DNA from: a virus | Direction: 5' to 3' (one strand) | Length of the DNA: 64,000 bases | Virus record (IMG/VR): IMGVR_UViG_3300044511_000202 | Span: 7,485-71,484 of that record | Part shown: piece after piece, positions 42,001 through 45,000 of the stretch | Layout of the letters: each line of letters begins with the position of its first letter | Position numbering within the stretch: position 1 is the first letter of the stretch | Program-made: the position numbers

Positions 42001-45000
42001 CGCACTTCGGGAGCCGGCGCTCGGTGACGTTCTCGACGGGTACGCGCGGCTCGGCGCATGACAGCGCCAGCGCGGCCAGGATGGCAAGAAGTTTCACGAG
42101 AGATCCTCCTCATCCACCGCGATGGGCGCGCTGAGCAGCTCGATCGGGTCGGCGCGGAACACGGGCCCCGCGCCAACAAGCTCGCGGCGGTCGCCCTGGC
42201 ACGGCGCCCCGCTAGCGTCGTCGTGCGGGAGCGGCCTCCAGGCGCACTCGCGCGTGCCGAGCTTCTGGGCACCCGGTGCGATGGGCACCAGCTTACAGCA
42301 GATGTGACAGTATCCCATTGCCATCGAGCCGGGCGGCGGATTCGAACCGCTGCGCGCGCACCCCCAGGGTATCGCCCGGCAGAGGGCGCCTGCACGGCGC
42401 CGAGGCTAGACTAGCCGCGGATGACGGTCATCACCGGCGGGTCGGAGAGCGCGGGCTTGTCACCCTGCTGCACGCGCGCCAGCGCGAGCGCCTCGATCAC
42501 GACGTCCGCGAAGTCGCTCCCGGAGCGCGCGTAGAAGCGCCCGCGCGGGAGTCGGCCCTCGTCGGCGGTGGCCTTCGTCGCGCCGTACACCGCGACGGTC
42601 GCCAGCTCGGCCTTCCACGCTCCGAACGCCAGCGCCGTGATCGTCTTGTCGCCCGTGCGGATGTCGGGCACGCCGTGGTGGTGCGCGATGCCGCGCGCCC
42701 AGTAGCTGATCCACGGCTCGAGCGGCTGGGCCCCCTCGGGGCGACAGTCCACGTACAGCTCGAACGGCTCGTCCCCGTCGGGCGCGGGCCCCTTGGGGGC
42801 GGGGGCCTCGTCCTTCTTCTTCTTCGCGGCGACACCAGCCTTCTTCGTGGGCTCGGCGGCCGGCGGGGGCTCGGGGTTCCCCGCGGCGACCAGCTGCGCC
42901 TTCGTCACCGGCTCGGACTTCGGCTCAGCCTGCGCCTTCGTCACCGGCTCGGACTTCGGCTCAGCCTGCGCCTTCGTCACCGGCTCGGACTTCGCCTCAG
43001 CCTGCGCCTGAGGCGCGGGCGGTGCCGGCGGCGGCTCGAGTCCGGGTGCGGGTAGCGCGGCCAGCGCCGGATTGCTCGCCGGGGTCTGCGGGCTCACGAT
43101 GCCCATGGCGGCAGGGGACGCGCTCGGCGTCGGTTGCGCGACGGGAGCCGGCGCGGGCGCAGCGGCGGGGGTCTTCTTCTCGGCGTGCTTGCGCAGGTCG
43201 TCCCGCAGCTTGATCACACCGTCCTTCGTACCGATCGGCGCGAGGCCCTTCAACTTCCCGTGCCCGGCCAGTCCGTCGCCCTGGAAGTCGAGGCGGGGCT
43301 CGGACACCGACGAGGCGTACACCTTCGCCACGTCCCCGGTGTACATCGGGCGGCCCACTCCGCGGGCCTCGATCTCCTTCAAGGCGGTGATCAGCTCGCC
43401 GTTCGAGTCCACAGCGTTCTGCTGAGCTTCCTCGTCCAGTAGCGCGTCCAGGATGTCGCTCATCGGTTCGTCACTCTCCAGATCCTCCGCCAGTGAGTTG
43501 CGCTCCTCCGCGGGGGCGGACCCGAGGAGACGTGCGCGACCCGCGGCGCCGAATAGCGACGCGGAACGCGCGGCTTGCGCGGCGCCCTTAGACGCCAGAC
43601 CCACCGAGCAGTATTCCCGGTGCGGGCACCCTCGAAAGTAGGCGTCGCACGAGCGGTGGTTGCCCGGCACCTTCTCCGGGTCGATCTCGCGCGCCACGTC
43701 GCGCATGCGGCGGCCCAGACCATCCACGTAGCCCCAGCGACGGTGGACGTCCTCGCGCGACACGACGGTGGACACCTTCCACCCCTCGCTCCTGCCCTTC
43801 GTGAGCGTGTACACGTGGGACACGCGACCGCGCTCGGCGCGGGGATCCAGGCGGAAGCGGTGCTCCGCGTAGCCCACCATCTGGATGGCGGAGGCCAGCT
43901 CGCGGCCGGTCTTCGCGTACTTCCTGTCCCCGGTGCTCTTCCAGTCCAGCACCTCGAACGCCACGCCCGGATCGGGCTCCACGTCACCGTCGAGGTTGAT
44001 CCACTCGCCCCAGTCGTGGCTGACGTCGATCTTCCCGACGAGCGGAATCCCGTCGGCGTCCAGCGGGTGGTGCGGAAAGCTGACATCGGGGAGCCCGGCG
44101 GCGAAATGCGCGAGCGCGACCTTGCGCTCGGTCTCGTCCGCGAGCAGGTGCGGCGACAACTCCCACTCGCACCAGATCGGGCGGCGCCCGGGCGCGGGCT
44201 CGCGGACCGGCATCCAGCGCACGATCGGGAGGATGAGCGGTCCGAACGCGCGCACGCCCGTCTCGTAGAACGCCTCGATCGGGTCGTGGAGCATGCGCTT
44301 GCCACGCTCCTGGGCCTCCGTCTCGGGCTCCTTCTTCCCGCCGACCTTGTCGAACCACCAGCGGCGCTCGCACCCCGCGTAGGTGTTCGGGTCGAACGTC
44401 TGGAGCGACGAGACGGAGGTGTAGCGCGGCACGCCGTCGACGACGGCGGGGCCGTATGGGCTACCCACTAGGCGGCCTCGCGGAGGAGCGCGAACCACGC
44501 GCGGCCCTCGTCGGTGATCTCCCACTCGAGGGCGCAAGTCCGCCCCGGGGCCTCCTCGGCGTAGGCGAGCCCGTCCGCGCGCAGCGCGCTGGCGATGCCC
44601 ACCACCTTCGCGTGGGGGAGGCGGGAGGCTCCGACCAGCTCCACCATCGTGAGCGGGCCGTCGGCCCGGGCGAGCGCCCCCAGCACGCGCACGCCGTCGA
44701 GGACTACGGTCCCGCGCGCGCGCGGGCGATCCAGCCGATCGCAGCGGTCGCACGCCTCGGCGCCCCGATCCTTGCGGCGCCCGCACTCGCACCAGCACAT
44801 CGTGGTGCGACCCTCCGCGTTGCGGTTGGACTCGGGCGCGGGCTCGATCCGCGGTCGAAGGTTGGAGCGCACGGTCGCGCGCGGCACGCCAGTAGCGTGA
44901 CCCGACATGGGGCGCCCGGTGTCGAACAGATCGGAGATGGCCTTCATGGCTCCTCCGACGCGCGACGCGCGCGGTCTAGTCCCAGCTTCGACAGCGCGCG

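Follow-up and report, generated by a model that had tools for sequence, protein, structure and literature searches.

A tRNA-like element in the replication operon of an uncultured lake phage matches a leader hairpin conserved in the Anaeromyxobacteraceae

A 54-nucleotide element that resembles the acceptor and T arms of a tRNA was found between two cistrons of the minus-strand replication operon of an uncultured lake phage, and its 3' part is identical to part of a hairpin that a radical-SAM gene of the Anaeromyxobacteraceae carries in its 5' leader. The phage is the IMG/VR virus record IMGVR_UViG_3300044511_000202 (71.5 kb, rated complete by CheckV), of which positions 7485-71484 were analysed. 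This stretch of 64,000 nucleotides, with a G+C content of 69%, is called the window in this text and all phage coordinates refer to it. On sequence comparison, the element (42380-42327, minus strand) is most likely derived from, or selected to match, the leader hairpin of the host radical-SAM gene. Our preferred reading, to which we give a probability of roughly 0.4, is that the element is a host-derived mimic of the top half of a tRNA, at which the transcript of the replication operon would be cleaved by the RNase P and RNase Z of the host, so that the next cistron is freed as a near-leaderless mRNA.

The 21-mer GGTTCGAATCCGCCGCCCGGC, taken from the 3' part of the element, was observed six times in 596 Gb of prokaryote contigs. 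Four of these matches are located in metagenome-assembled genomes (MAGs) of Anaeromyxobacteraceae, where they all fall in one orthologous non-coding place, and the remaining two (Marivita and Streptomyces) are inside long open reading frames (ORFs), as expected by chance. No tRNA gene was called at any of the six loci. A search with blastn-short found all 23 nucleotides of positions 42328-42350 to be identical to seven host loci in five genomes (L011, L013, L014, L015, L017, L018 and L038). Except at the first base of its stem, the T-arm mimic of the phage also agrees fully with the hairpin of the host leaders and with the T arm of tRNA-Cys in the host.

The resemblance was observed to go beyond the shared nucleotides. 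In both the phage and the hosts the locus is non-coding, tRNA-like and without a Shine-Dalgarno sequence. The GCCCG strand of the basal helix (P1) ends 5 nt before the ATG in the phage, and the same distance was found in 16 of the 31 host leaders, the others having 6 nt (4 leaders), 7 nt (6) or 8 nt (5). The G+C content of the element matches in the family is 0.70-0.84 and that of the phage window is 0.69. Furthermore, features of the phage copy recur in single host variants. For example, L085 carries the phage's A-GCGG four-pair stem and its UCGAUG tail, and L041 carries the phage's CGGGCGAUAC 5' part. From these comparisons we consider a link between the phage element and the host leader hairpin to be quite likely, and the Anaeromyxobacteraceae are the probable hosts of the phage.

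The host sequence reads ...CGGGC-AAGA-GGCGG-UUCGAAU-CCGCC-GCCCG-GCGAC-AUG, where a 5-bp P1 is followed by a 4-nt bulge (6 nt in one copy), a 5-bp T-like stem and a 7-nt loop. The hairpin is located in the 5' leader, before the ATG of a gene of ~890 aa in which TIGR03960 (B12-binding radical-SAM) is fused to TIGR03936, and a gene for an Rne/Rng-family ribonuclease lies downstream of this radical-SAM gene. The radical-SAM gene was matched in 89 of the 92 family genomes. Each of the 31 host loci examined contains the hairpin, as do 25 more genomes of the family, which gives 56 family genomes in all. Our alignments show that 99.3% of the pair cells in 30 host sequences are paired, compared with 30-63% in slid-partner controls. 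Seven of the ten pairs never vary, and two change on both sides: one switches between G-C and C-G in seven sequences and the other is found as C-G, U.G or U-A. The U.G pairs argue for pairing at the level of RNA rather than for a DNA palindrome.

The upper 17 nt of the host hairpin are the T arm of the host tRNA-Cys(GCA). The 11-nt T-arm motif GGTTCGAATCC was found at 15 sites in the host genome G001, of which 13 belong to tRNA genes, one to this leader and one to neither. In many host copies an 8-bp hairpin, GCGGCCGC-AGGC-GCGGCCGC, lies 5-6 nt upstream of the leader hairpin. Two further tRNA-like sequences were noticed in host genomes. One is L116 (G001:C25:37500-37700), where a T-arm-like ACAGG-TTCGAAT-CCTGT is followed by ACCGCGCGCCA; no tRNA was called there, and the sequence may belong to the 3' end of a transfer-messenger RNA (tmRNA) or be some other tRNA-like remnant. 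The other is L092 (G005:C1:1467030-1467190), which compared with L091 repeats tRNA-Cys from its anticodon loop onwards to its 3' end, the mark left by an island that has integrated at this tRNA.

A covariance model, R1, was built here from the host leaders. It has no Rfam counterpart, and the host loci themselves gave no Rfam match. Each host genome contains a single copy, which R1 scores at 54-64 bits, and the next-best match does not exceed 25.6 bits. Over 151 genomes sampled from the order, 42 were matched, namely 41 of the family and G189. The match in G189 (33.9 bits) is on a different contig from its radical-SAM orthologue and was not counted as a member, and no leader copy outside the family was found by R1 in the non-family genomes sampled from the order. 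The host hairpin is itself a candidate new cis-regulatory RNA. Literature searches under TIGR03960 or DUF2344 returned nothing relevant and the genes were found to be undescribed; likewise, nothing specific was found on phage tRNA-like elements together with RNase P, nor on leaderless mRNAs in Myxococcus.

In the phage, the 5' strand of an 8-bp acceptor-like stem is followed by a 22-nt filler and then by a 4-bp T stem that closes a UUCGAAU loop. The T stem is formed between GCGG (42350-42347) and CCGC (42339-42336), with the loop TTCGAAT at 42346-42340. Acceptor and T stems would thus stack over 12 bp (8+4, or 7+5 with an A.C mismatch at position 49:65), and the loop fits the consensus GGTTCRANYCC, which are the structural marks of t-elements and of acceptor/T-arm minihelices. 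The element occupies the whole intergenic gap, from a hairpin after the stop codon to 2 nt before the next ATG. The tRNA-like fold is the minimum-free-energy (MFE) structure in three of four sequence contexts (55, 86 and 231 nt), and in the 151-nt context it lies 1.2 kcal/mol above the MFE. An initial annotation of this DNA had described the 8-bp acceptor stem, the 4-bp T stem, the TTCGAAT loop and the ~22 nt between them, and it was right in every detail. Its placing of a 6-bp hairpin that ends 4 nt upstream, and of the ATG 2 nt after the element, whose last base is the discriminator-like U, can be read directly in the sequence. Its general view that this is a non-decoding acceptor/T-arm mimic just after a stop codon in the minus-strand replication operon was also borne out.

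A tRNA gene was ruled out at this locus, where ARAGORN called no tRNA genes in the window and Rfam gave no match for the element at gathering thresholds. The sole weak Rfam match is to tRNA-Sec at 22.5 bits (gathering 47), with both inner arms deleted in the alignment and E-values of 0.046 locally and 5.8 window-wide. We also scanned for the architecture itself, defined as a loop of the form TTCRANY on a T stem of 4 bp or more, with a directly abutting 7-nt strand whose perfect complement lies at most 60 nt upstream. One such site was found in the window, and any site at all occurred in just 2 of 300 dinucleotide shuffles. The exact motif GGTTCGAATCC likewise has a single occurrence in the window. 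No intrinsic terminator was detected, with no terminator-like site in 41700-42800; the 6-bp hairpin is followed by CUCUGCC and no U tract.

The place of the host hairpin can be viewed against the orthologues of the radical-SAM gene outside the family (L094-L113), which were found to have no hairpin. In 12 of these 20 orthologues, read by eye, a TAGACC-type -10 element with a TTGAC-type -35 element lies 6-12 nt before an ATG that has no Shine-Dalgarno sequence. With a promoter so near the ATG the mRNA should be leaderless, and the radical-SAM gene therefore looks ancestrally leaderless. The hairpin leader of the family looks like an insertion that must be coped with. In the phage, sigma54-like motifs (GGCMCG-N5-TGCW) were found ten times, where 1.26 are expected (54951-63808, minus strand). 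At nine of the ten the ATG follows 12-13 nt after the TGCA, implying leaders of 2-3 nt. Promoters of the sigma54 type fit an Anaeromyxobacteraceae-like host. At three of the sigma54-like sites (61891, 62842 and 63476) GAGGAGAGGC was noticed in the interval between TGCA and ATG, where most of it would be upstream of a canonical start site.

On our preferred reading, transcription of the polycistronic minus-strand replication operon would run through the element, and the tRNA-processing enzymes of the host would take it for a pre-tRNA. RNase P prefers U at position -1 and G at +1, and here it would cut between U42381 (position -1) and G42380. The upstream nuclease mRNA would then end in the 6-bp hairpin, which could act as a protector of the 3' end. 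A second cut of the RNase Z type after U42327 would give the downstream mRNA a 2-nt leader, and the 76-aa cistron, which has no Shine-Dalgarno sequence, would be translated as a near-leaderless mRNA. RNase Z (TIGR02651) was found above cut-off in five of five family genomes. The reading thus draws on three pieces of context, namely the seemingly leaderless ancestry of the radical-SAM gene, the short leaders implied for the phage itself, and the exact 2-nt leader expected from such a cut together with the RNase Z of the family. The direction of transfer would be from host to phage.

The proposal can be extended to the hosts, although in this wider form we regard it as tentative and, on balance, doubtful. 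On this view, a radical-SAM gene that was leaderless in its ancestral state would have gained, between its promoter and its start codon, an RNA that mimics a tRNA top half. In the hosts this RNA may be a leader that can be removed, or it may sense the capacity for tRNA processing. A lytic phage would have captured it, made it more tRNA-like and used it to cut the replication transcript, thereby switching on an internal cistron that has no Shine-Dalgarno sequence.

Searches for relatives of this region among phages returned little. No match was found for 41800-43000 (blastn) or for the nuclease encoded upstream of the element (tblastn) in 50,697 GenBank phage records, and a scan of IMG/VR with the nuclease as a single protein query gave none. 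A search of 5.8 billion proteins with the nuclease yielded five distant proteins, and an alignment-based search yielded six IMG/VR loci and three metagenome loci with nuclease relatives at 24-38% identity. The gene order of nuclease, small ORFs and large ORF was observed to be retained in the distant relatives. As for the element itself, the exact 21-mer has no match in IMG/VR. A degenerate 21-nt pattern, searched for other phage copies, has one match, which lies inside a 141-aa ORF and was judged to be chance. With blastn, the 84-nt element had no match among GenBank phages better than E 0.7, and R1 found no second copy in the whole 71.5-kb record. Two of the distant relatives carry genuine tRNA genes nearby. 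L003 (4667-4903) has three of them just upstream of the nuclease, two being tRNA-Ile(AAU) and one having an odd anticodon loop, and L004 (9369-9437) has a 69-nt tRNA-Glu in the same operon that begins 9 nt after a stop codon.

Several observations weigh against the preferred reading. The first group concerns conservation. The T-arm motif is absent in this slot from all the distant relatives found, where ordinary small-ORF coding sequence is present instead, and no phage relative with the element was observed in GenBank phages, IMG/VR or the metagenome scan. With no phage carrier found, there is no covariation or compensatory change among phages to show, and the conservation with compensatory changes in related genomes that is expected of a t-element was not observed. 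DNA contigs from two lake-water samples are identical to the window over 41712-42923 and thus offer no natural variation to read. Furthermore, the 96-nt stretch does not exceed its shuffles in stability (z = 0.24, with 119 of 200 being equally stable or more so). The 76-aa ORF has itself as the sole match among 5.8 billion proteins and belongs to no Pfam or PHROG family.

The second group concerns the relation to the host. The match is short, and the window shares chance 18-21-mers with host loci. When 20 kb of the phage was compared with the 92 family genomes by BLAST, the outcome was GC-rich noise of up to 71 bits and no CRISPR-spacer-like match. R1 scores the phage element at 25.3 bits (E ~4e-4 in the window), whereas host copies reach 35-70 bits and noise in host genomes goes up to 25.6 bits. 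The phage sequence had itself served to find the host family, which makes this match circular. Both MAFFT and cmsearch align the phage filler, and not the distal acceptor strand, to the host P1, which leaves a history of host hairpin plus insertion unsettled. The host hairpin stacks 10 bp and not 12, about one third of the host loops depart from the T-loop consensus, and in the hosts 4-7 nt would remain after a cut of the RNase Z type, giving no true leaderless end. The geometry of the phage element also falls outside that of the host model, with a P1 of 7-8 bp, a 22-nt filler and an upper stem of 4 bp. No TIGR03960 gene follows the phage element, where the 76-aa ORFan is found, and tblastn of the host radical-SAM protein against the window gave nothing better than E 0.1, on which capture of host coding DNA was rejected. 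Separately, a search for prophage relatives with the nuclease as query found none in the 92 family genomes, under a strict filter which means that absence is not shown.

Among the alternatives, the element may be a protein-binding operator copied from the host. The host hairpin would then be a feedback sensor of the operon of the radical-SAM and Rne/Rng genes, with either the RNase E/G-type enzyme or the radical-SAM protein binding to it, and the phage copy would place the downstream cistrons under the host circuit or titrate the factor. The ribonuclease gene that follows the radical-SAM gene agrees with this idea, as does a sequence conserved far beyond the needs of pairing, which is seen in the seven invariant pairs and in a conserved asymmetric bulge. 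The hairpin also reaches to just before the start codon, so that a protein bound to it would block initiation. Passages on RNase E genes elsewhere (PMC13692253, PMC11321048 and PMC10989929) describe autoregulation through structured 5' untranslated regions (UTRs) that are bound by the enzyme. The rne 5' UTR of E. coli and its relatives (Rfam rne5 and rne-II), in the descriptions consulted, resembles the host hairpin in being a conserved bulged stem-loop that leads an operon with an Rne/Rng gene. The host hairpin differs in that it precedes a radical-SAM gene and not the ribonuclease gene, is similar to the T arm of a tRNA, and can only be presumed to mediate feedback. In addition, a gap of 124 nt separates the radical-SAM and ribonuclease genes, so that their shared transcript is only presumed, and the phage has replaced the 4-nt bulge by 22 nt and lengthened P1 from 5 to 7-8 bp, which makes it more like a tRNA and less like the host operator. 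We consider an operator to be unlikely.

A functionless remnant, either of a phage tRNA gene that has lost its D and anticodon arms or of a chance scrap of host DNA, is also improbable to about the same degree. The phage does contain a sub-threshold pseudo-tRNA at 4311-4379 and no intact tRNA, the relatives L003 and L004 have real tRNA genes in the same operon, and the element is conserved in no relative and is unremarkable in stability. Against this, the acceptor strands have stayed perfectly complementary over 8 bp across a 22-nt gap, the T loop is of perfect consensus, and this architecture is rare in the shuffles. The six 21-mer matches all lie outside tRNA genes, the searches of IMG/VR and GenBank phages described above brought up no phage source, and the element fills the intergenic gap exactly.

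It is also possible that two independent GC-rich T-arm-like hairpins coincide, in which case the phage element would still be a tRNA mimic but would be unrelated to the host element. By our own estimate, chance alone should place such a 21-mer about 1-2 times in 596 Gb, and two chance matches in coding DNA were indeed seen. T arms are convergent by nature, as illustrated by the 17-nt T arm that the host tRNA-Cys shares with the leader. We nevertheless find coincidence very unlikely, as the host locus is the only tRNA-like match in the collection and is non-coding, it also ends 5 nt before an ATG without a Shine-Dalgarno sequence, and the matching family is of high G+C like the window, with the phage's sigma54-type promoters fitting such a host. 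Finally, a phage attachment-site (attP) core for site-specific integration at the radical-SAM leader would account for the 23-bp exact identity with a host intergenic site, which is typical of such cores, and tRNA-like sites are common targets of integration, as exemplified by the duplicated 3' half of tRNA-Cys found ~25 kb from the gene in host G005; yet an attP core is barely credible here, given that tyrosine and serine recombinase families (PF00589 and PF00239) were not found in the whole 71.5-kb record, the site lies inside a replication operon, all 31 host loci are uninterrupted, the nuclease query under its strict filter found no prophage in the 92 family genomes, and an att core would need no complementary 5' strand.

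The preferred reading of a cleavable tRNA mimic can be compared with known systems. Acceptor/T-arm minihelices serve as model substrates for RNase P, for RNase Z and for the CCA-adding enzyme. The phage element resembles them in its 12-bp coaxial stack, its T loop, the G at +1 and the U at -1, and it differs in having a 22-nt insertion at the junction and no encoded CCA, so it is regarded as a putative substrate. Ojala, Montoya and Attardi are said to have described in 1981 that tRNA punctuation in mitochondria yields leaderless mRNAs. There too a tRNA-shaped unit abuts the start codon, and its excision gives a leaderless mRNA, as it would give a near-leaderless one here. Mitochondrial punctuation involves real decoding tRNAs in organelles, whereas the phage element is a mimic, and leaderless use in the phage is suggested by the missing Shine-Dalgarno sequence and by the promoter-to-ATG spacings.

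The t-elements provide a further close comparison. Passages of Forner et al. 2007 (PMC1920247) describe them in plant mitochondria, where RNase P and RNase Z cleave them at the ends of mRNAs, and passages of Maier et al. 2015 (PMC4326828, citing Holzle et al. 2012) describe the like in Haloferax. As presented in those passages, t-elements are, like the phage element, non-decoding, carry the GGTTCRANYCC T-arm motif and lie within longer transcripts, and the phage element is likewise found between cistrons and abuts the next start. The ends of t-elements coincide with mRNA or rRNA ends and were mapped there, whereas cleavage of the phage element is predicted from its sequence. The phage element further differs from the t-elements of those passages in belonging to a bacteriophage, in having a 22-nt filler in place of reduced arms and in having a near-identical counterpart in a host chromosomal leader. 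What is new here is this chromosomal counterpart in the host, together with a host regulatory RNA that a phage has apparently captured and a putative tie to leaderless expression.

Table 1. Coordinates of the phage features in the window
Feature	Coordinates	Strand	Evidence
6-bp hairpin GGCGCC-GUGCA-GGCGCC, no U tract	42401-42385	-	sequence; pair probabilities 0.76-0.89 in four contexts
Spacer CUCU, 4 nt	42384-42381	-	sequence
Acceptor-like 5' strand GCCGGGCG	42380-42373	-	sequence; in MFE folds
Filler, 22 nt, in place of the D, anticodon and variable regions; holds a small ACCC/GGGU hairpin	42372-42351	-	folds
T-arm mimic GCGG-UUCGAAU-CCGC	42350-42336	-	sequence; fits the T-arm part of the tRNA-Sec model
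Acceptor-like 3' strand CGCCCGGC, pairs over 8 bp with GCCGGGCG	42335-42328	-	sequence; pattern scan
Discriminator-like U (42327) and CG, then ATG (42324-42322)	42327-42325	-	sequence
Upstream gene, 795 aa, PD-(D/E)XK nuclease domain; stop TAG 42413-42411	42411-44798	-	Pfam PF12705, E 3.8e-7
76-aa Cys-rich ORFan	42094-42324	-	G+C by codon position 0.72/0.54/0.84, fits coding
95-aa ORF, lipoprotein-like N terminus (VKLLAILAALALSC...)	41810-42097	-	third-position GC 0.92
Helicase-like gene, 755 aa, true ATG 41813 after GGGAGG	39546-41813	-	PHROG 62 DNA helicase, E 1.9e-8
9-bp hairpin, ends 3 nt before the pseudo-tRNA	4285-4307	+	sequence
Pseudo-tRNA, 69 nt, four-armed	4311-4379	+	20 bits against RF00005 (gathering 29)

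The genes around the element are set out in Table 1. The neighbouring cistrons are preceded by AGGAGG or GGGAGG, whereas the ATG of the 76-aa ORF has no Shine-Dalgarno sequence. For this ORF a gene caller elsewhere has chosen the second ATG (42318), which would give 74 aa. The 95-aa ORF starts with a GTG that overlaps the stop of the 76-aa ORF (GTGA) and follows an AGGAGG, and it matched no Pfam or PHROG family. A 949-aa ORF (39546-42395, minus strand) that would cross the element and both small ORFs was rejected, as its first 194 codons are out-of-frame GC-rich noise of Arg, Ala and Pro. Elsewhere in the window, the family-A DNA polymerase ORF (34860-37514, minus strand) was noticed to match the DnaJ CXXCXGXG zinc finger as well (PF00684, E 8.6e-5, residues 371-432).

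A second tRNA-like locus at 4285-4379 had been assigned by the initial annotation to the same family, on account of its similar layout. The layout is indeed the same at both sites, where a hairpin is followed by 3-4 nt and then by a tRNA-like element. The pseudo-tRNA has a 7-bp acceptor stem with one G.U, a tiny D arm, the anticodon loop UCCGUAA with C33 and the T loop TTCGACT, and it comes soon after a capsid-like ORF (3230-4267). The next ATG (4420) is ~40 nt past it, behind AGGAGG. No match to its 3' half was found in the 92 Anaeromyxobacteraceae genomes with up to 3 mismatches allowed. The two loci, 42327-42401 and 4285-4379, thus have unrelated sequence, different anatomy and different spacing to the next start, and they do not form one family. 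The wider claim of a phage tRNA-mimic family fared no better, with neither phage homologues nor compensatory changes in GenBank phages, IMG/VR and the metagenome scan. The processing-site interpretation offered in the same annotation remains the best reading of the element at 42327-42401, with cleavage as a prediction, but not for a family shared with 4285-4379.

If the preferred reading is true, tRNA-shaped punctuation would extend beyond organelles and archaea to bacteria and phages, which would use it to make near-leaderless mRNAs from long transcripts. The phage would have borrowed from its host a regulatory RNA and not a gene, and the shared sequence would be a clue to the host of an uncultured lake phage. 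Should the element be a captured signal, phage gene expression would be tied to the RNA-processing machinery of the host. Independently of the phage, the Anaeromyxobacteraceae carry a strongly conserved RNA motif before a widespread radical-SAM gene, whose function is unassigned, and an RNase E/G-type gene, and this motif may provide a handle on the gene pair.

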